From the NCBI GenBank assembly GCA_030390025.1, contig CM059427.1, positions 188,542,001 to 188,606,000 of the forward strand: a stretch of 64,000 bases of DNA, read 5' to 3'. The notes beneath the pieces are model-generated. The model made no database searches. It worked only from the letters and a program-made list of their open reading frames with translations, and had not been told where the DNA came from. A program made the position numbers and the translations under genes. Below, piece by piece: positions 3 through 17,152 of this stretch (within the stretch, counting starts at the first letter, position 1; the number at the start of each line of letters is the position of its first letter). This DNA is from Squalus acanthias (lineage: Eukaryota).

Positions 3-845
3 CACCTGAGTAAACTTACACAAAAGGGGGACCCCTCAGTACACTTCATGGAAGTGGAACAGCGGGCAGGCATCAATGACTGTGATGATGCCGAGATGGC
101 AAAAATGCTCCTGTTCTCACTAGATGGCAAACTATACCAGTCCCTCTCTGCCGAAAGCAAGAGAGGATGGAATGGGTATGCTGCCTTCAGAGAGGAGGTT
201 TTAGAGGCCATGGGGATAAATGATGGTAGTCCCTTCTCCCGGGTGGAGAGGACAGTGCAGCTCGCAGGGGAGACCCCACAGGCTTTCGCAGACAGGCTGT
301 GGCTTGTGTACAGGGGTGCTTGTAATGGGGATCTCGACCGAGCTAACCTGAACAGGGACGAGCTGGCCCACTGGCTCCGTAGCCGAGTGGCAAACAGCTT
401 GCCACGAATCAAAGCCAAGGCTGAGCTTTGGTTTGACCCAAGAGATCCCCGGGTCACCGAGGAGGCAATGGTCAGACAACTGACCCTAGCCGACCGGAAC
501 GGTAGGGGGGCTGAAGAGCCCCCACCGAAAGGAAAGGTGTATGAAATAAAGCCCAGTCAGGATAAGAAGGAGTGGCACCAGGAAGGTGGTAAAACTTCCG
601 ACACAAAGCGTAACTGCTTCGGGTGTGGGAAGAGTGGGCACTGGAGAAAGGACTGTAGAAATCCCTGGAAGGATATACTAACAAAGAATTCCCCAGCTTT
701 TGCCCCAAAAGTAGAGGCACCGACCTCTTCCCCCACACTGGACACAATAGTAGCGGCCATCAGAGTCCTGTTTGGTGGCCCAGAGAAGGTAGCTACAGCC
801 ACTGGTGCTGTAATCCCACCTGCCCCCCCTAACGCAGACCTATGA
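3..845 (+). CDS. gag: Gag C-terminal part (capsid MHR plus CCHC nucleocapsid); frame open from window start
   Basis: MHR-like QLAGETPQAFADRL; zinc knuckle CFGCGKSGHWRKDC; ends in TGA followed by CTAG. Confidence 0.9.
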   Translation, partial: HLSKLTQKGDPSVHFMEVEQRAGINDCDDAEMAKMLLFSLDGKLYQSLSAESKRGWNGYAAFREEVLEAMGINDGSPFSRVERTVQLAGETPQAFADRLWLVYRGACNGDLDRANLNRDELAHWLRSRVANSLPRIKAKAELWFDPRDPRVTEEAMVRQLTLADRNGRGAEEPPPKGKVYEIKPSQDKKEWHQEGGKTSDTKRNCFGCGKSGHWRKDCRNPWKDILTKNSPAFAPKVEAPTSSPTLDTIVAAIRVLFGGPEKVATATGAVIPPAPPNADL

Positions 846-1973
846 CTAGAACCAGTGCAGCCCGTCTACCTGTGTTCCCCGGAATACGATGGTAAGAAGG
901 GGGTGGAGACGGTGCAGGGGAGATGTTTGGTGGACACCGGAGCTGCCAGCACGGTGGTCCATTCAGAAGACCTGACCAATTCACCCAGGTCTAACAAGGT
1001 CCCATTTAGCATAATGGGGTTCACAGGGAACGAGCAGGCTGGGGCAATGTCCAAACCTTTGGACATAGATTTAGGATCCCTCCATACCACGTGGGAGGGT
1101 AACCAAAAGGCCGACAAATTGGGCAAGCAGGGGACCAGGGAAGGAGAGTTCTGGGATCCCTATAAAGCAAGTCCGGTAGCCGCAATCCGGGACAAGGGAG
1201 GCACACAGGGGGTAGCTTTGCCCCCGGACTTGAAGCAGGTCCAAGCCCAGGATCCCGTCCTTAAGGCCGGCCTGGTAAAGAGAGAGAATGGGGAGTCCAT
1301 AGAAGGTCTGTTTAGGGCAGCGGACGAGATTTTAAAACAGATTCACTGGCAAGCAGCCAGTAACCTGGGGAGCCAGCACCAGAAAAATCGCCTGCTGTTA
1401 GAACCCCAGAGAACCCACGAGTGGGAGATTGACCAGTGTAAACTGTTTAAACCCGACAAAGGGGAACGGCCAGCAAGGGTGAACCGCCCCAAAGTTAGAA
1501 ATCCCCAGCCAGCAGCTGTGGCAGACGCACAAGCTGCAGCGGGAGGGACAGTGTGTTGTCTCACAGGAGAGAACCCTCCCCCGATGACATGGGACTCAAG
1601 CACACCCCCAGTGGCCAGAGCCCTAAGAAGGTCTCCCCACACACCACAGCCAAGGCTACTGTGGCCACAGGTGTATCAGTTTACAGGGTCCCACCCAAAG
1701 AGGGCTGCAACCCGAAAAGGAGCGCCCAAGAGCAGGGAGCGTTCTAAAGTTGGGGATCCCCAGCCTACAGCCTCCAACAGTGAGGGACTCACAGGAGAGG
1801 TAGTACTGGGAGAAGAGAGAGAGAAGGGTCCCCAGCCTGCAGCCTCAGGCTGGGAGGAGCCCACAGATATGAACGAGGGCGCTGCAGCCACACCAAAGGG
1901 GGTAGTGTGCTGCAGCACAGGACGCAGCTGGGATGTTAAGATAACCCCAGCGTTTTGGAGGAAGGCCTTCTGA
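846..1973 (+). pseudogene. pol: Internally deleted pro-pol in frame with gag: protease N-half, RNase H tail, integrase flanks, Pro/Ala/Gly-rich tail
   Basis: CLVDTGAASTVV and IMGFTG (protease); GNQKADKLGKQG (RNase H end); DLKQVQAQDPVL (pre-integrase); IDQCKLF (integrase C-end); no RT YxDD, no HHCC, no DDE. Confidence 0.8.
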
Positions 1974-2252
1974 GTCCGGCGGTACAGGCCGCACTACACC
2001 CAGGTGTACAAGCCATCCAGAGGCCACAAAAGGCAGAGGCTAAACAGGATTTAACCTGGCCGTCCGGAGACGGGTGGCAAATGTACAGAGTTTTACGTTT
2101 TAAGTCATTGCAGTTTTGGTAGTTATGGGTTATCATTAGTTCAGTTATTTGTAGAGTTTTAAGTTTAAGGGCTCGATTAATTATCCAGCCAGAGAACCTT
2201 TCTGGGACATGGATATATGTTTTGTGAGTGCCCCTACAGAAAGGAATTCGGA

Positions 2253-3938
2253 ATGACAAGGGTTCTGCTCCTGCTCGCCCTGGTAGGGGTGAGCATCGGT
2301 GACCAAGGTGACGTAGAGGACTCCCACATCTATGGGTGCTCGGGAGAGAGAGCACCAGTCGTCATCGCAGGGGGTGGCGAGCGGGGAGTGGAGGAGCTCG
2401 CCATCTACTTCCACGAGGGAAGGTGGCCAGGGTGGCTGAGTTCCAACTCTACTAAATACTCCAACCAGCCCGGGTTCATGTACGGGGAGGCCTCCCTCCC
2501 ATGCCCCAGAATACAGGTTGTTGCCACAAGGGTCAGTGTCACCGAGGGGAAGCGTGTGTGCCTTACCTGTAAGGGACGAATTCCCCTGAATAGGTGGTGG
2601 TGGCTCAGGAAGCTGAGCAGGGACGCAGGGGACCATACAGCCCACTGGGAAAGATTAGGGAACGACACCTACCGGACAATCACAGGGACCCAAGGGAGAG
2701 CGAGTGTTTGTTGGGATAAGTGGTGGGAGTCGGAACAGGGAGTCTATGTTTGTATGTGGGGATCAGAGGAAGCCTGCCCCACAGGGGTATCCATCATCTT
2801 CTCCAGCCAATGGCAAGATGCCGGGGAGGGGATAGGGTGGGATTCTAGCCTGCATGTGTGCGTGGTCCCACACATTCCGATCCCAGTTAATGCCACTGAA
2901 CTCGTGGCACACACCCGAAAGCCCCTACCCACGACCCAGGTACCAAAAACCCTGGAAGAAAAGTGTCCTACCACAACCAAGGGACCAGGGAATGGGTTAG
3001 TCCTAGTACCAACTGAAAAGGTACTATACCAGGGGGTACACTATGCAGTAGCTTCAGTAATATTAAACCTTACCGAGGTATACTTACCTGAGTGGTGTCC
3101 TAAGGAGACGGAGCAGTTGTACCAGGCCTTGCTAAAGGAAATGTTTCGAAAATTTTACGAGTTTGATTTTGCCAATATAGACAAAGTAGAGCTATACAGA
3201 ATACACCCTGAGAACCCTATGGGCACTGGGAGACAAAGAAGGGGAGCCTGGAATGATGTTTTCACTGCCTATAGTACAGGATCCTCTGTGATAAATAGCC
3301 TGGATGGCATGGAATTACAGACACAGATAAATGGTTTAAAAACCCAGTTAAGAAAGATCCTGAAGGATGGGAACACAGTGGTAGGCTCAGAGCTACACGA
3401 GGACCAAGCTATGATGGTTCATTTAAAGGAAATTATTGCTGAATTGGAAAGGCATGCCAAAACAGTAAATGCACTCATACAGGAGGATAGGAATGCATCG
3501 GATCAGGCTGAACAGAATGAGGTGTGTGTGCTGTACGGGGCATGGTTGCTGGACGAGGGCCATAGCAACCTGGAGGATTTAAAGCAAGGTTTAGTCCCCT
3601 CCTGGATCAGCAACAAGCACCTCGCAGCCCTCCACCCGTTTAGTAATTCGCTGAGCCAATGTCAATTTTGTCTAGCCTCTGAAGCCTACCCTGTCCCAAT
3701 AGATTGTGGGCGTTCCAATCACACTATCATGGGGATAGTAGTGAGGATGCCGGTCATGAGTGGGACAGCCCGACCCGTACCGGTATACAGGGTGGAGATC
3801 ATTGGGATCATTCAAGGGGGTGCACACATCCGTTTCACAGCGGTCCCACCTTATGTCATAAAGTGGGAACACGCTATGACAGGTACTGACCTCTTCGGGT
3901 GTTGGAGCCGGGGTTCACACATAATACTATGTCCCTAG
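2253..3938 (+). CDS. env: Env ectodomain: signal peptide, Ig-like domain, P/T-rich linker, class I F-type fusion protein; ends at a premature TAG
   Basis: MTRVLLLLALVGVSIG; splice acceptor CCCCTACAG ending 2239; furin site RQRR (3231-3242) followed by GAWNDVFTAYSTGSSVINSLD and a long heptad region; no CX6CC or immunosuppressive domain. Confidence 0.8.
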   Translation: MTRVLLLLALVGVSIGDQGDVEDSHIYGCSGERAPVVIAGGGERGVEELAIYFHEGRWPGWLSSNSTKYSNQPGFMYGEASLPCPRIQVVATRVSVTEGKRVCLTCKGRIPLNRWWWLRKLSRDAGDHTAHWERLGNDTYRTITGTQGRASVCWDKWWESEQGVYVCMWGSEEACPTGVSIIFSSQWQDAGEGIGWDSSLHVCVVPHIPIPVNATELVAHTRKPLPTTQVPKTLEEKCPTTTKGPGNGLVLVPTEKVLYQGVHYAVASVILNLTEVYLPEWCPKETEQLYQALLKEMFRKFYEFDFANIDKVELYRIHPENPMGTGRQRRGAWNDVFTAYSTGSSVINSLDGMELQTQINGLKTQLRKILKDGNTVVGSELHEDQAMMVHLKEIIAELERHAKTVNALIQEDRNASDQAEQNEVCVLYGAWLLDEGHSNLEDLKQGLVPSWISNKHLAALHPFSNSLSQCQFCLASEAYPVPIDCGRSNHTIMGIVVRMPVMSGTARPVPVYRVEIIGIIQGGAHIRFTAVPPYVIKWEHAMTGTDLFGCWSRGSHIILCP

Positions 3939-4534
3939 CACTCAGGACTTCTAAACCACAGTGCGGGTTTAAAGCTGCTGGCGCACGACCTATAAACTGT
4001 ACCATGGAGGTAATGGCACACGGCCATGTTTCCCCACAGGTAGCATATATAGGGGGTGGGACATATTGTGTCACCACAGGTGTGTCCCACTACCAGCATG
4101 GACACTTCTGGTGTCCGGTAAGTGACAGCAGTTTCTGCTTTAAACCCGAGGCAGAAGTTCAAGTGGCCCAGGAACGGATTGTCCCCATTCCTGAACCCTC
4201 CACTGTTCACCTCACTGTAACAGAAAACATCACCAACCTGCAAATGTATGTGACTTATTTTGGAGATAAAATTCCCCCTCTACCCGAACATCTTACCATC
4301 CTACTTAAAGCTGTAGAGATTTCACAAAAACATTTCTACACCCTGGAACAGAAAACAGTTGAAATAGGGGCAGAGATTTTGGATATACTAGTTCCACCCT
4401 GGTGGGATATTTTCGAGAATATAGAGGTGCCTTCCTGGATCAGGATGGCTTCCCATCTTCTGGTGGTCTGCCAGCTCGGGATAGTTCTCTACCTGCTGTG
4501 TATAAAGTGCAGGGGAAGGGATGGACAGCTCTGA
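3899..4534 (+). pseudogene. env: Frameshifted C-terminal part of env (Cys-rich region, heptad, membrane anchor)
   Basis: Cys-rich PQCGF...NCT...YCVTT...WCPVSDSSFCF; PPWWDIF; hydrophobic HLLVVCQLGIVLYLLCI; in a different frame from 2253-3938. Confidence 0.8.
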
Positions 4535-6012
4535 TCCAGACACGAAGGGACTTAGAAAGTGCATCAAAATAAAGGCTATGGCCAGGGATGGAACGAACCT
4601 TGATTTTGTTTTTCTAATAACATTTTTTGTACGTGTGTTGTGTCATTTTTGTGATGTGTATGATGTGTTTTCCCAAGCAGTGCAGGGGTGTCGGACCCTC
4701 TCCGTGCTTGGATGTGAAAAAAAGTTTGATTTTCTTACCTGTATGTACCTGAAACACCACATTAAAAAGGGGAATGTATGTTTGGGTTTTTAGTTTAGGT
4801 AATTATAGGGGAAGGTTGGTTTTCGGGGATCAGAAATTTTGCTCACCTGGTAATGATACTGATTCAGGTTCAGTATCACAGGGGGGAGTGTAAGCTTCGC
4901 AAAATCCCCCAGAAACTCGTATAGAACCCTAAAAGGGGTGATTTTTGGATTTGTCATACGAATTTGGGATGATGGGACCTAAATGAAGTGATTTGAGGCA
5001 AAAACCTCAGTTTTGGACATTTTTAAGGATCAGGGAAGAAAACCCCTGAGGAAAATGACTTTTGGATATGACTATTGGGAAAAACACCTTTCACAGACAC
5101 AAGACAGGCTGTGGAGGGGTGTGGCGAGGCAGTGGACAGCTTTTGGTTATTGGGGCCCAGTCAAGCTGTCTGGAAAATGTTTGCACTGCAATCCAAGCAG
5201 GAGTAAGAGCCTCACCCAAAACCTCACAAACACATCCAAAATTGAATAATTCAAGACGCCTTTTGAAATTCCCAGGCCCAAACAGGATGCTAGAAGCCTG
5301 AAAACAATAAAACATCCAGTACACCCATCACCCCACCAATCACCTGTAATCAACCGAAGAGATCGACAGGACGCAAGCCATTTGACACTTAGTAAAGTCG
5401 TTACTGTTAACAAGGTCTTACAATGACCAGGATTTGATTTGGCTTTGACGAGGCCACTTCAATTTAGTATAATTGAAGGCCCATCAAGCAGTTACAACAG
5501 TTTCAGTAAGAAGGCCCATCAAACAGTTACAGTTCAAGTTCAACAGAAGGCAGTTCTGCAGGCTGGAGTTACAGAGTTCAGGACAAGCAGGCAGAAGGCA
5601 GTTTCCACAGTTCTGCAAGAAGGCAGTTTGTAGATTTTCGCAATTATCACGATTTTAATAATAAGGAGAGAAGCAAGTTTAATTGAACATTTTATTGAAC
5701 GAAAGGCTGCTACTTTAAAAAAAAAGGTATAGCAGCCGTGTAAAATGGCCGCCGAGCATCGTGACAGGCTTTCCAGAACATGGTGAGCACACAGCCACTG
5801 CAGTAAAAAAAAACGCGAAGACCAGTCGTAATGGCTCAGACAAGAAGGCGCTGAAAATACATTTATAATGAGATCATGCACAGTACAGATTGGGAAGGCA
5901 GGATGCAACACATTTGCGTTTTGGACAGAACAATAAACTAAGTGCTTGACTCATTTTAAATGCACGGTGAGGAGTCATTGCACCGGACGGTCGGGGCCCA
6001 TCCAGATACATC

Positions 6013-6200
6013 ATTATACAAATTCCACCCAGCTCAACAATGAGAAAGACATTGACGGGTGATTGGGCCAGTTCTGAGTGATCCCGAAACCAGTTGAGGA
6101 GACAATTATACAAATTCCACCCAGCTCAACAATGAGTAAGACAATAACGGGTAGTTGGGCCAGTTTCGGGTGATCCCGAAACCAGTTGAAGAGACAATTA
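6013..6200 (+). repeat. 92-bp tandem duplication in LTR B (U3 enhancer-type repeat)
   Basis: ATTATACAAATTCCACCCAGCTCAACAATGAG at 6013 and 6105. Confidence 0.85.
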
Positions 6201-11463: not shown

Positions 11464-11977
11464 TGTTGTAGGGGCTAATCGGAGCCTTAAGCGGACTAAC
11501 CGTGAAGGAGAGTTGACGCGTTACCCGACTTAGCCCGACTGAGCAATAAAACTCAAACACCAATTTACACGGTTAAATGCGGGAGTACACTTTATTCAGA
11601 GCGCCAAGGGAGAGAATTGATGCACCCGCGTGCAGTCACCGACCTCTGAAATAAGTCACTCCGGGGCACAGTATTTTATACATCCATCATTGATTACATC
11701 GTGCTCACATGAGCATGTGATAGTCATTAGAATCCAATCAATTTTATGTATACAATTGTTAAGCATAGTAAATCAATTAACGTCAGGATACAGTTGATGT
11801 GATCAGCCTCGTCTATGTGACAGTGTTATCTCGAGCCCTGTATGTTGCAACGTACTGACAAGGCAGACTGCCAACCCATTGCAGCATGTAAAAAGTCCTG
11901 TGTCAGCGAATTTAAAGTTCATTAACTGGATGAGTTTTTCTTCTCCGACATTTCTTTAATAATTTTCTTCTCCAACA
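11464..11977 (-). repeat. 3' LTR of minus-strand ERV
   Basis: About 7 substitutions versus 17173-17686; preceded on the minus strand by PPT AGAAGGGAG (11978-11986). Confidence 0.95.
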
Positions 11978-13465
11978 CTCCCTTCTGTTGGTCCGGGGGC
12001 ACGACCTTCTTGCCCCCAGGAAACCACTGCTCCGTGCCTCTTCACAGGGTCGACGCCACAGCCACTGGCTCATCTCTTGAGGGCTGGCTACCCCGGCGAC
12101 GGTGTCATGCGTTTCCTCCATGGGCTGGAGATCGGTGTATCCTTCCTTTTCTTCGTCTTCGAGCAACGGCTCCTCTTCCCGTACGGCGCTGACTGACATT
12201 AGCTGGGTTGTGGCAATCTTACAACATGTCTTTAACAAGGTTATCAAGCAACATACAGTGACACATATCATCACTATCACAACCATTACGTGCATAATCC
12301 AGGGGCCCCATTCTGTTAGCCCCAACCATTCTAGCCATGACTGTGTCGGTTCCCAGTGTAATTTCTTAATCTCTTCCTTCATGTGATTTACCAAGTTGGT
12401 GATGTTTTCCGAACTATCAGGGATGTAAGTACAACACTCTTGCCCGATCACCGCGCAAGTGCCTCCTTCCTTTGCAAGCAGGTAGTCCAGTGCCATCCTG
12501 TTTTGCATGGCCACTGTCCTGAGGGCTACCATTTCTGCACTTATTTCTGCAAGGGCTTCTGTGGTGTCGTTGGCTACCTTCTCGAGAATTTGGGCATTGT
12601 TAATGATTTCCCGTGCTAATTTACCCACCCCCCAGTGGGGGAAGGCGACGGCGAAGAATCGCTCAGTCTCCGTAATTCCTCGCCTGGTTCGATAACAATG
12701 GTGCTCCGTGAGGGATTTGAGATGGTATACATAAGGCATAACGTATCCCAGGTAACATGACCCGGTCCAATCTCTGGGCAGCCATGGGTACGCCTTGTGC
12801 CCGCATATAAAATATGTTCCATTGTAGGCCGTCATATCCATGTTTGCCCGAAAGATAGTGAAACCCATCTGACTATCTGTGGCCCATCGGGTCCCATTCC
12901 ACGGTTGGTTACTCGTTAAGTTTAGCAGACCAGTGGTATTAAACCACCAGCTTTCAAATGCCGTGTTCCCCTCCTCATATGTCACAAAGGTTTGGGTGCA
13001 ATTACTATTTCCTGCCTCTAGGTTCACCTTCACCCCTCTACTTACACTCCTTGTCCAACATATTTCCCCGACGGGTCTTCCGACCCCGGTTGTGTTTGTT
13101 AGGGCGAGGAAGGGTGGATCTTTACTAGAGTTGTACTTGGGTTTGTAACATCCCTTAAATTGTTCCAATGGGTACCCTCCACCTCGGAACTCCTCCCTCG
13201 TGACGTCATGATAGCTGTTCTGGTCATTAAGCGCAAATTCTGCTAGTTCCGTGAGATTCAGGGGTATGGGCCGCAGTGGTATCCCACCCTTACTGTGGAT
13301 CGGAATATGACTACACACCCAACAGCTACTTTGCCCTGTCTCCTTTACGTATTCATACGACATATATACAAAGGTATTCACCTGGAGCTCTCTTCGCTTA
13401 CGGGAGCCCCTTTCCATTCCCGAAACAATGCATGTTAACGCTATTAAACACAGTGGTATCCCCAT
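11912..13465 (-). CDS. env: Intact gamma-type envelope glycoprotein (517 aa from ATG 13465), tail running into the 3' LTR
   Basis: Signal MGIPLCLIALTCIVSG; CWVC (CxxC); furin RTRR; ISD MQNRMALDYLLAKEGGTC; CX6CC CAVIGQECC; TM WIMHVMVVIVMICVTVCCLITLL. Confidence 0.95.
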   Translation of the reverse strand: MGIPLCLIALTCIVSGMERGSRKRRELQVNTFVYMSYEYVKETGQSSCWVCSHIPIHSKGGIPLRPIPLNLTELAEFALNDQNSYHDVTREEFRGGGYPLEQFKGCYKPKYNSSKDPPFLALTNTTGVGRPVGEICWTRSVSRGVKVNLEAGNSNCTQTFVTYEEGNTAFESWWFNTTGLLNLTSNQPWNGTRWATDSQMGFTIFRANMDMTAYNGTYFICGHKAYPWLPRDWTGSCYLGYVMPYVYHLKSLTEHHCYRTRRGITETERFFAVAFPHWGVGKLAREIINNAQILEKVANDTTEALAEISAEMVALRTVAMQNRMALDYLLAKEGGTCAVIGQECCTYIPDSSENITNLVNHMKEEIKKLHWEPTQSWLEWLGLTEWGPWIMHVMVVIVMICVTVCCLITLLKTCCKIATTQLMSVSAVREEEPLLEDEEKEGYTDLQPMEETHDTVAGVASPQEMSQWLWRRPCEEARSSGFLGARRSCPRTNRRECWRRKLLKKCRRRKTHPVNEL

Positions 13466-13669
13466 TTTTATTTGGAAGCAGGCACTGTCTATCACCGCGT
13501 CGTTGCCGCTTCTGGTAGCACTCTTATATTAACATACAAACATAACATAAAAACACAGTAGTTAGTACACCAAATGCAATAAGCCAAAGCACGAATGCAA
13601 ACAGGTAAGGTAATTGGACATTTACGGGTCGCTTGATCTGTAGGTAAAAGAAACACAAAGAAGCGCCCA

Positions 13670-15385
13670 TTAGTTCATCTTTTCTCCATATATTTTTAAT
13701 TGTGTCCAATGTTTCCAGACTCCCTTCCCCCTTATGTCCAGACAGGCACAGGTATCACCACTAATTATAATTTCGTAGGGTCCGCTCCATTTTGGAGCGA
13801 AGCCTGGCTTGTCAGGCAGGACCTTCAGCATCACTTTGCTGCCCGCTGACGGCACGGAGGGTGTCATGACACCCTCCTGTGCCTGATCCTGAAGTTCCTG
13901 ATTGTCTCGTACGGCTTGGCGCATCCCCTTCAGTTGGGTGCTAAGCTCTAAGACATAACGCCGTAGTCTGTCCTTTAAGGGGCCCACATCAGCCCCACCT
14001 GTTATGATGCCTTCTGGTAATTGCATCGCCCTTCCTGTCATTAGTTCATAAGGGGTCAGGCCTGTCGTACGATTCGTGGTGGCTCGTAACTTCATTAGGA
14101 TAAGGGGTAAAACCTCAACCCATGTTTTCCCAGATTCCTGTATTGCTTTTGCTAAAGCATTTTTGAGTGTTCGATTCATTCTTTCAACCATTCCCGAGCT
14201 CTGGGGGTGGTAAGGGATATGGAACTTCTGTTTGATCCCCTTCAGCTGACAAATATTCTTTACTACACTCCCTGTAAAGTGCGTTCCTTGGTCAGAGTCA
14301 ATTTGCAAGGGCACTCCCCACCGCGGGATTACTTCCTCGGCCAGGATTCTGGCTACCGTTAAGGCCGTGCAATTCCGCGTTGGGAAAGCTTCTACCCACC
14401 TTGTGAACTGGTCACTTATCACAAGGCAGTATATTTTTCCGTGGGACTGGGGAAGTGGTCCCGTAAAATCAATTTGTATGTGCTCCCAAGGACCTCGGGG
14501 TCTTGGCTGGTGGCCCATTCTAATTTTAATAGGCCGGCCAGGATTATGCTGAGCACAAGTGATACATCGCTGACAGTGCCTCGCGATGTCTCTTCCCATC
14601 CCCTTCCACCACCAATCCTTACTTATTAAGGAGCTCATTGCCTCTCTCCCTGTATGTGAAATACCGTGATGTATCTCTAGCAGAGTCTGTTGTATGCACT
14701 CCGGTGCTACTACTTTACCTTCTTTTCGCCAGACTCGATCGGATCCTACTCCAGCTCCATTTCTTACCCATGTTTCCTTTTCCGTGTCTGATGCTTCGTC
14801 TTGGACTTCCCAGATCTTTATTTCATTCTCCGGGCTGTCTACGCTGCCCACCGGTACTTCGTTTATCTCCTCCTGTTCTAGAGCTGCCTGTGCTGCCCAA
14901 TCAGCCGCCTGGTTCCCCTGGTGGCTGTCCCAGTCTGGGCTTGTCTTGTCTGGTTCTTTCTGATGGGCCTTAATTTTGATAACTGCCACCTGTTTAGGTC
15001 TTTTGCTTGCTTCTAGCAAGGCCTCTATTCGTCCCTGATGTTTGATGGGGTTACCTCCTGTGGTTATATAACCTCTACGTCCCCATGCTGTCATGTAGTC
15101 ATGCACTACCCCGAAGGCATACCGGCTATCTGTGTATATATTGACTACCTGGTTCTTTGCTTCATTCAATGCTTGAGTCAACGCGACCAACTCTGCTACT
15201 TGGGCTGATAAGCTACCGTCTAACCGTCCAGATTTAACTACTTCCATCTTACTATTAACTACTGCCCACCCGGTTCGGGGTTGTCCATTAATATATTTAC
15301 GGGATCCATTTACATAGAATGTTTCCTCCACTTCCTCTAGAGGGGTGTCTTTGATAATCTCTTCTCCAATGTCCTTGTCTATATT
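13670..15385 (-). CDS. pol: Pol remnant: RNase H plus integrase (no PR, no RT)
   Basis: RNase H FYVNGS / SAQVAEL / YTDSRYAF / GNQAAD; integrase H..H..CITC zinc finger, IDF, DSDQG, MVERMN, KWSGPY. Confidence 0.9.
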   Translation of the reverse strand, partial: NIDKDIGEEIIKDTPLEEVEETFYVNGSRKYINGQPRTGWAVVNSKMEVVKSGRLDGSLSAQVAELVALTQALNEAKNQVVNIYTDSRYAFGVVHDYMTAWGRRGYITTGGNPIKHQGRIEALLEASKRPKQVAVIKIKAHQKEPDKTSPDWDSHQGNQAADWAAQAALEQEEINEVPVGSVDSPENEIKIWEVQDEASDTEKETWVRNGAGVGSDRVWRKEGKVVAPECIQQTLLEIHHGISHTGREAMSSLISKDWWWKGMGRDIARHCQRCITCAQHNPGRPIKIRMGHQPRPRGPWEHIQIDFTGPLPQSHGKIYCLVISDQFTRWVEAFPTRNCTALTVARILAEEVIPRWGVPLQIDSDQGTHFTGSVVKNICQLKGIKQKFHIPYHPQSSGMVERMNRTLKNALAKAIQESGKTWVEVLPLILMKLRATTNRTTGLTPYELMTGRAMQLPEGIITGGADVGPLKDRLRRYVLELSTQLKGMRQAVRDNQELQDQAQEGVMTPSVPSAGSKVMLKVLPDKPGFAPKWSGPYEIIISGDTCACLDIRGKGVWKHWTQLKIYGEKMN

Positions 15386-15473
15386 TTTTTTTACAACTGT
15401 GTGGGGCTCCTGTTCCCAGGATCCCCTCAGCTGGGTTCTCCCCTATGTCTCCTTTTACGGGGGCCGCTGACTG

Positions 15474-16808
15474 TCACTGTGTCTCTTTCCACTGTTGATA
15501 TTGTCTCTTTTCTTCGGGGGTCATGGTGACGTGGGTCGTCTCAGGTCTGCCATGTTTACTGAAACAAGTGGCCTCAGTATGGCCCTTCTTATTACAGTAA
15601 GTACATGTCTTCTTAGCCTTACAATCTCTAATAAAATGTCCAGGCTTCCCGCAACCATGACATGCCCCCTTGGGTCCCGCTGCCTGTTTTACCGCACTTA
15701 CACTTTCCTGTTTAACCTTGACTGTACCTTCCTCTTTGGCTTTTAACCCGTCTACCCCACAAGCCCACTCTACTAGGTCATCGTAATTCCTGGTTGTTAC
15801 TATGCCCATCTTGATGATAGCCTGGTGTGCGGGAGACAAGCCATCTTTAAAGGCCTGAATGAAAGCGGGGTCAGTTCTTGCCGGCCCTGGTTGACCTGAT
15901 GACTCTCCATAAACAATAAACAGCCTTTCTCCATATTCGGAGGCCCCCTCGCCCTTTTGCTGCTTACAGGACGTTATCTTACTCCAATTAGTCGGGGCCT
16001 CTCCTAACACCCGCTGGATTTCTGTTTTAAACAGATTAAAGGGAGCCTGTTGTCGGTCTATTGTATCTGCCAATGGACATTGTTCAGTCCATCGACCGGT
16101 CTTATAATCCGTATTGGCCTGATTGGGGGTGGTCTGCGTGAGGCGCCATCGGTCGACCGGACATGCTGCCCGGACCAACTGATGAACGTCACGCAGGTGG
16201 AGGCTGTGTCCCAGCCAAACCATATCTAGGTTTGCCCAGAACTTGGTGTTGGCACTTCGTGTTTGTAAGTTCCCCAGGTCTTTCAAAATCTGTTGTCTTT
16301 CTCCCGGGGTAAAAGGCTGAAAATCCGCCCTTGCCCCGGCGGCACCAAGCTGGCCCCTCATTCTAACGGGGGCCGCAAAATATTCTTCTGTTGTATCCCC
16401 AACTGTTTCTTCAGTTGGGGCTGTTGGTCCGGAAAGTCCGTACGGGGGGAGTGGATCTGTGTAACACCCCGTCCACCTTCCGGGACACATTCTACTTTGT
16501 TCTTGATTTATTCCCTCTAGTATTTCTATCTTCTTTTTAAAATCTGCTATTTCTCTGTTTTTGGCCTTATCAGTCTCTCGGACCTTATCTACTTGCTCGA
16601 TTAGTCCCGCCAATTGGTGTACCAAAAGAACTCCCGTTTTCTTGGTTTTCTCCCTTTTTTGCTTACGTACCCACTCTCGTTGTGACTCTAATGACTGGCT
16701 AACATCCCAGCCATCTTTCTGCATTCTGTCTATCAGCGAACGTCTATCTGTCATGTAACTATTAATAAGGGACCCCGGGGGCCCCATCTTAATGTCCTTA
16801 CCTGACAT
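15474..16808 (-). CDS. gag: Gag (444 aa) with MHR and two CCHC knuckles
   Basis: QQKGEGASEYGERL; CHGCGKPGHFIRDC and CTYCNKKGHTEATC; LPPY and PTAP late-domain-like motifs. Confidence 0.95.
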   Translation of the reverse strand: MSGKDIKMGPPGSLINSYMTDRRSLIDRMQKDGWDVSQSLESQREWVRKQKREKTKKTGVLLVHQLAGLIEQVDKVRETDKAKNREIADFKKKIEILEGINQEQSRMCPGRWTGCYTDPLPPYGLSGPTAPTEETVGDTTEEYFAAPVRMRGQLGAAGARADFQPFTPGERQQILKDLGNLQTRSANTKFWANLDMVWLGHSLHLRDVHQLVRAACPVDRWRLTQTTPNQANTDYKTGRWTEQCPLADTIDRQQAPFNLFKTEIQRVLGEAPTNWSKITSCKQQKGEGASEYGERLFIVYGESSGQPGPARTDPAFIQAFKDGLSPAHQAIIKMGIVTTRNYDDLVEWACGVDGLKAKEEGTVKVKQESVSAVKQAAGPKGACHGCGKPGHFIRDCKAKKTCTYCNKKGHTEATCFSKHGRPETTHVTMTPEEKRQYQQWKETQ

Positions 16809-17152
16809 CGCCCGTCCGCTCTCCGATCACACTCTCCAGTAAACACTCACCGCCTCTCTTCACTCTCCCGTCCTTCTGGACTCGCGAACTCGTTTACCGA
16901 CGTGTCTAGTTGCCTGGAGTTCCGGATCTCGCAAGCACCGCCCGCAGACTTTATCACAGGTTTTACTCTGTACCTTTAACCTACGGCCCAAAAATTTGAC
17001 ATTGTAATGCAGAATACTCACAACGATTCCCCCTCTGCCTTCCGAGAATACCCGGACCAAAAACCCCTATAAAGTGTACTCTCGCAAATCCCCTCAGATT
17101 CTTTCGGTTACTCGAGCCCGTTAACACTTGATCAGGGTGTCGGTACTCAGTA

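Follow-up and report, generated by a model that had tools for sequence, protein, structure and literature searches.

The locus and its elements

The window, by which we mean the whole stretch of 64,000 nucleotides analysed here, opens within one copy of an endogenous retrovirus that is very abundant in the cartilaginous fish Squalus acanthias. The env open reading frame of this copy spans 2217-3938 and comprises, in a single frame, a signal peptide, an N-terminal head, a Pro/Thr-rich linker, a furin site and a body resembling the fusion (F) proteins of paramyxoviruses and pneumoviruses. Env stops at codon 574 and its remainder lies in another frame; the window copy is dead. The following features were recognised.

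3..845, plus strand: 3' part of gag with a zinc knuckle; the element begins upstream of the window
846..1973, plus strand: pol remnant, the start of the protease followed by a large internal deletion that removed RT and RNase H
2253..2300, plus strand: likely signal peptide, env residues 13-28 (from the sequence, with a hydropathy peak at residue 13)
2301..2504, plus strand: N-terminal extension of the head, residues 29-96, with C41 and C96 (low model confidence)
2505..2762, plus strand: Ig V-like core, strands A' to F, residues 97-182 (Pfam, ESM Atlas, structural model)
2763..2879, plus strand: predicted long F-G loop, residues 183-221, with the conserved C187 and C215
2880..2912, plus strand: predicted G strand, residues 222-232, with an N-A-T-E-L motif (structural model, alignment)
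2913..2963, plus strand: Pro/Thr-rich linker from head to fusion body (from the sequence; constraint signal absent)
2964..3938, plus strand: predicted paramyxovirus/pneumovirus F-like fusion body from C250 (sister-copy model; premature stop in the window copy)
3231..3242, plus strand: furin-type cleavage site RQRR, residues 339-342, ahead of a putative fusion peptide
3890..4534, plus strand: C-terminal remainder of env with a transmembrane segment, in another frame (broken copy)
4889..5331, plus strand: beginning of the 3' LTR; a segment 2.3-2.8 kb before the window matches it at 90% identity

The large pol deletion (window 846-1973) recurs in L032, a copy located on contig C29. Because the same deletion is found in both copies, a non-autonomous subfamily keeping gag and env is suggested. 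Another sister copy, L034 (L034:3388-8427), displays 89% identity to the window over env and 76% over gag and differs in its signal peptide and tail, a pattern which, as far as the alignment goes, is that of recombination between subfamilies with the Ig head retained. Sister-copy pol encodes a protease, RT, two RNase H domains and an integrase, the RNase H pair being recognised as RT_RNaseH_2 (E=5.5e-21) followed by RNase_H (E=7.4e-21). The RT of the element matches MLV-type (E=3e-55) and foamy-virus (E=7e-54) enzymes, both above Ty3 (E=1e-39). Elsewhere in the window, two tandem 92-base repeats of 90% identity are located downstream of the 3' LTR start (6013-6196), and a second, unrelated endogenous retrovirus with gag and RNase H/integrase occupies 11912-16826 on the minus strand; its gamma-type env frame is uninterrupted over 538 codons (TLV_coat, E=1.4e-15).

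Immunoglobulin signature of the env head

A preliminary description of this locus had read env residues 99-217 (window positions 2511-2867) as an immunoglobulin domain placed between the signal peptide and the Pro/Thr-rich linker, ahead of an F-type fusogen. The motifs on which it relied are present and the placement was supported. The motif residues are C118, W128 and E173-x-G175-x-Y177-x-C179; C118 and C179 lie 61 residues apart, within the 55-75 residues usual for V-set-like domains. The canonical D-x-G-x-Y-x-C is found in four relatives (P0001, P0006, P0008 and P0069), the window copy having Glu (E173) in place of Asp. Additional cysteines, C115 and C165, are present as well, and the mature head contains eight in total (41, 96, 115, 118, 165, 179, 187 and 215) that are nearly invariant in both copy sets compared.

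Residues 97-182 matched a sole Pfam family, Ig_3 (E=0.001), over profile positions 2-74 of 78. The Ig assignment thereby gained a profile match, though one scoring 19.9 bits (19.5 bits for residues 97-232), below the curated cut-off of 30. Two relatives at 54-61% identity also match Ig_3 (P0008, E=0.0085; P0069, E=0.0027), and the Pfam search of the skate relatives P0001 and P0006 matched no family. The ESM Atlas neighbours carrying a Pfam family are all V-set, I-set or ig proteins (scores 0.91-0.93, recognition 2441), the best ten family-bearing matches belonging to the Ig clan without exception (10/10). A profile of the head alignment, which included long unrelated tails, gave no match among PDB sequences.

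Structural models of the head and body

Because the window copy is broken, the ectodomain of the unchanged sister copy L034 was modelled with AlphaFold (44-row alignment, mean pLDDT 64.5); residue n of this model corresponds to window env residue n+39. Model residues 3-196 match V-set and I-set domains, among them those of TCR V, TREM1/2, pIgR, CD8 and antibody V, with Z 8.5-9.8 (VIA-align), the alignments covering about 85-110 residues with an rmsd of 2.2-3.7 Å in nearly all rows (one 4.3, one 5.2). Among the top 50 structural rows of the model, those aligned to the head region are from the Ig superfamily only. Identity to the TCR/TREM/CD8/pIgR-type domains amounts to 8-18%, and the head was modelled with moderate confidence, pLDDT being about 50-77 in the core and below 50 in the extension and loop. 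A head-only AlphaFold model reached a pLDDT of 44, with a best Z of 4.2 and non-Ig sandwiches among its top rows; its matches to Ig domains were weak (Z up to 3.7) and Foldseek returned no match at E<=0.001. In view of this poor quality, it was set aside as stand-alone evidence. The ectodomain model bears out the Ig fold that had been proposed, and the head is predicted to adopt an Ig beta-sandwich of V-set-like type.

Model residues 218-690 match F proteins with Z 11-13 (up to 12.8), and the top Foldseek matches of the ectodomain model are paramyxovirus and pneumovirus F proteins (hPIV3 F, E=1.1e-10). The modelled body displays an F-like three-domain core with heptad repeats; the hydrophobic C-terminal segment, found in the other frame in the window copy, is in frame in sister copies. 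The body is therefore predicted to be a class Ib (F-type) fusion protein with putative fusion activity. Its profile also weakly matches foamy-virus Env (E=0.019). In BFVD, the Env of walleye epidermal hyperplasia virus 1 (E=2e-12) occupies the top two rows together with an unnamed entry of 928 residues; both align over about 710 model columns, longer than F proteins do.

The C-terminal end of the domain was also reconsidered. In the L034 ectodomain model, the better of the two, the G strand is formed by residues 222-232 and is preceded by a loop of about 40 residues, modelled with low confidence, that holds C187 and C215. The N-A-T-E-L motif found there is kept in skate and sawshark relatives and in P0069, and we take it to resemble the V-set G-strand motif. 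On this model, the Ig domain probably ends near residue 232. The boundary is uncertain because in the poorer head-only model the Ig match ends near residue 195, with an alternative G strand at 190-195. The end at residue 217 given earlier is probably some 15 residues short, and the 'SLHVCV' segment that had closed the domain is probably not its G strand.

Origin of the Ig domain

The window copy matches Dscam (E=0.0047) and basigin (E=0.035) among PDB sequences, the matches to these two proteins spanning E values of about 0.005-0.2. Both were rejected as donors, being copy-specific noise for which the sister copy gives E=1.1 or no match. A search of 1.8 billion representatives with the whole env returned 52 matches, none of them a host IgSF protein, and no host homologue at E<0.001. 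Since the host donor was not found, we infer capture from the fold: the domain would have come long ago from a host Ig-superfamily gene that is now unrecognisable. The host-captured Ig domain of the preliminary description is thus retained as regards the predicted fold and not as regards an identifiable donor.

A viral beta-sandwich that merely resembles Ig and does not derive from the host IgSF would be compatible with the sub-threshold Pfam score, with the missing host homologue and with the copy-specificity of the basigin and Dscam matches. A short CxxC motif that the head shares with non-Ig heads (HHalign probability <3%) points the same way. We nevertheless regard such a mimic as highly improbable, since the B-strand Cys, the C-strand Trp, D-x-G-x-Y-x-C and the G-strand motif follow each other in V-set order and spacing, and since both the ten best Atlas matches with a family and the head matches among the top 50 structural rows are confined to Ig proteins.

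Copies, relatives and constraint

A first look at the S. acanthias genome yielded 5,680 candidates for the Ig segment, and all of those scored (150/150) are 88-100% identical. Forty copies were then selected by their F body, independently of the head. Alignment over at least 90% of codons 97-232 was obtained for 33 of the 40; the remaining seven are cut, interrupted or frame-shifted, and no alternative intact head occurs among the 40. Among variants common to at least three of the 40 copies, five synonymous and five non-synonymous changes in the Ig core give a pN/pS of 0.28 (p=0.04); for F residues 429-570 the ratio is 0.37. These values are based on small counts and carry no correction for transition or CpG bias. 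The loop and linker gave no constraint signal in this 40-copy analysis. A pN/pS of 0.17 calculated from the first 30 copies was discarded, as these had been picked for their match to the Ig protein.

The head is found at 54-70% identity in six relatives (Rhinoraja, Pristiophorus and Rhincodon proteins and two further records) and is therefore kept in skate, sawshark and whale shark. The N-terminal extension (residues 29-96) is conserved across the elasmobranch relatives as well.

A modular slot in front of the F body

More distant relatives have the F body in common and display a different part in front of it. Ig-looking heads are carried by the bamboo-shark protein P0011, whose automatic UniProt name is 'Ig-like domain-containing protein', and by frog proteins (Pelodytes, Mantella and Lithobates). 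P0031 is the only frog head with a Pfam match (V-set, E=0.045); the Pfam search of P0018, P0039, P0070 and seven further cluster members gave no Ig match. The Ig status of the frog and bamboo-shark heads rests on their motifs, on the ESM Atlas scores of frog P0018 (0.88-0.90) and on the automatic name of P0011. The Lithobates head is devoid of the canonical cysteines and in this presumably resembles CD2/SLAM-type domains. Frog genomes contain many near-identical full-length env genes (n=14 in the Lithobates P0070 cluster, n=16 in the Mantella P0039 cluster), each cluster carrying its own Ig-looking head. A Cys-rich head is found in Mustelus, Pristiophorus and Chiloscyllium proteins, and P0042 is an F-type Env without any head.

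Pairwise comparison of the head types with HHalign (10 + 15 pairs) gave probabilities of at most 2.9%, a similarity that is not significant. The score of head A against head B was equalled in 3 of 25 shuffles; those of A against E and of A against the Cys-rich head were equalled in none of 25, although only over a CxxC motif of 15-19 residues. These scores are compatible with one origin of the head types as well as with several. Ig-looking heads are located on both sides of a midpoint-drawn quick tree; both this tree and the FastTree one came with long-branch warnings.

The S. acanthias genome was further searched with two distant relatives and 32 loci were examined, one of which (L077) had no anchor. 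In blastp clustering, all 41 bodies stay together in one cluster, whereas the 40 heads split into 18, several of which are artefacts of broken frames. Some ten clean head types come from this genome alone (L079-L108). Among them are a group with Ig-looking heads, related to bamboo-shark P0011, and several small Cys-rich types without a known family; for 11 other heads from the same genome the Pfam search gave no Ig match. Four loci of a sister family are of particular relevance.

L083, G000 C6:82104784, minus strand
L084, G000 C2:9212040, minus strand
L104, G000 C12:67335500, minus strand
L087, G000 C25:44677686, minus strand

L083, L084/L104 and L087 are 92-95% identical in DNA sequence over the integrase end and again over the F body, and between these flanks lie about 430, 430 and 790 unalignable bases that specify three unrelated heads. 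The 5' border of the exchanged segment is the env start codon and the segment extends to the F body. At the nucleotide level, this is direct evidence that signal peptide, head and linker were exchanged as a cassette in the sister family, with heads that lack the Ig signature. Depending on the element, the slot thus appears to be empty or to carry a head, with about ten unalignable kinds in the S. acanthias genome and further Ig-like ones in frogs; the preliminary description had not noted this range of interchangeable heads.

Proposed function of the head

In our moderately confident reading, the F-type retroviral envelope begins with a predicted V-type Ig domain as its head, which probably serves as a built-in cell-attachment module in a slot that sister elements exchange as a cassette. 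By analogy with F proteins, the head would remain, once furin has cut, part of the F2-like surface subunit of a trimer, from which a flexible and probably O-glycosylated stalk would hold it out. It would bind to a protein on the surface of target cells and fill the role of the separate H/HN/G protein of paramyxoviruses. The preliminary description had left receptor binding and immune decoy side by side; receptor binding is favoured here because the slot is exchanged as a cassette and holds mostly non-Ig heads. As a counter-point, an F-type Env can exist without a head, since published lokiretrovirus Envs and P0042 are headless.

Large DNA viruses use captured Ig domains as decoys or shields. 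A comparable role in immune decoy or antigenic shielding, heads being exchanged to escape antibodies and not to switch receptor, would agree with the immune V domains (TCR, TREM, CD8, pIgR) as the closest folds and with the existence of headless Envs, and cassette exchange is compatible with antigenic variation too. We consider this role unlikely: the identity to those immune proteins is low and no donor was found, the head is conserved across sharks and skates and not diversifying, and most heads in the slot are without Ig signature. A structural cap or folding aid, which would stabilise the prefusion trimer or set its trigger without any host ligand, is distinctly improbable. The near-invariance of the eight head cysteines would suit it, and foamy-virus receptor-binding domains also sit on an F scaffold, according to the part of PMC11468914 available. 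A fitted interface is however hard to reconcile with unrelated heads of different lengths on bodies that are 92-95% identical, and the linker between head and body is flexible and unconstrained.

Beyond the attachment module favoured here, a wider and rather doubtful possibility is that the element belongs to a large undescribed group of vertebrate retrovirus-like elements combining a conserved F-type engine with plug-in N-terminal heads, several of them captured independently from the host IgSF. Recombination would then run from the start codon to the first cysteine of the engine, and the captured Ig heads would comprise the elasmobranch V-like one, a frog CD2/SLAM-like one and others. If this were true, viruses would repeatedly have turned host adhesion and immune-receptor domains into entry ligands.

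The evolution of class Ib fusogens by addition of modules to a minimal F scaffold has so far been inferred from very distant viruses; here the process is visible within one genome, where one and the same engine occurs with no head, with an Ig head or with another head, and where sister elements that are 92-95% identical differ just in the head. The heads preserve, like fossils, the interfaces between viruses and their shark, ray and frog hosts and, being small and soluble, would make the receptor question directly testable.

Comparison with known systems

The closest known system is the Env of lokiretroviruses (lokiorterviruses) described by Wang and Han (PMC7947760, PMC9040795, both available in part). 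Both are vertebrate LTR elements whose Env is F-like and has a basic cleavage site and whose pol encodes a dual RNase H (tether and new RNase H); in both, the F body opens with a 'GP..G-hydrophobic' motif. Some lokiretroviruses have an smc-like extra gene and the present element has a coiled-coil-looking ORF before or fused to gag, in which, for the single element copy scanned, no SMC family was matched. In 22 of the 23 lokiretrovirus Envs covered by the available part of PMC7947760, the signal peptide leads straight to the F body, the 23rd being truncated, whereas the present element has a head in between. The word 'immunoglobulin' is absent from the accessible portions of its text and supplement, and cartilaginous fish are not among the lokiretrovirus hosts listed in them. 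By eye, the tether resembles that of lokiretroviruses and the RT motif does not, reading 'LPQGF' (retroviral) in the element and 'PFGY' in the six Loki RTs displayed in the same portions.

F-type retroviral Envs are thus already known, and what appears new is that the exchangeable slot of such an Env is occupied by a predicted Ig domain. The preliminary description knew of no account of this architecture, and none was found in the largely open-access literature searched. An Ig-headed Env is likewise absent from the available parts of PMC9040795, 10.1101/2023.10.26.564294, PMC13709493, 10.1101/2024.03.25.586437, PMC11089739, PMC12583693 and PMC11521997.

The head shares with V-set IgSF domains (TCR V, TREM1/2, pIgR, CD8, antibody V) the predicted fold, the Cys-Trp-Cys core and the F-strand motif. 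It differs from them in its low identity (8-18%), its extra cysteines, a loop between strands F and G predicted to span about 40 residues and the lack of an identifiable donor. The predicted fold of the body is like that of paramyxovirus and pneumovirus F proteins (hPIV3 1ztm, RSV 3rki, NDV 3maw, Langya 8tvg); these have no N-terminal head and act with a separate attachment protein, whereas the F2 equivalent of the element is about 220 residues longer. The N-terminal modules of coronavirus spikes are not known to be V-set Ig domains. PMC11468914, in the part available, presents F as a minimal scaffold to which receptor-binding modules are added, N-terminally in spike and internally in foamy-virus Env, and the combination of an F scaffold with an added module is common to these proteins and to the present element. 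In foamy-virus Env, the module lies ahead of the furin site as an insertion with a fold of its own, whereas that of the element is N-terminal, predicted to be Ig-like and located in a slot that sister elements exchange as a cassette.
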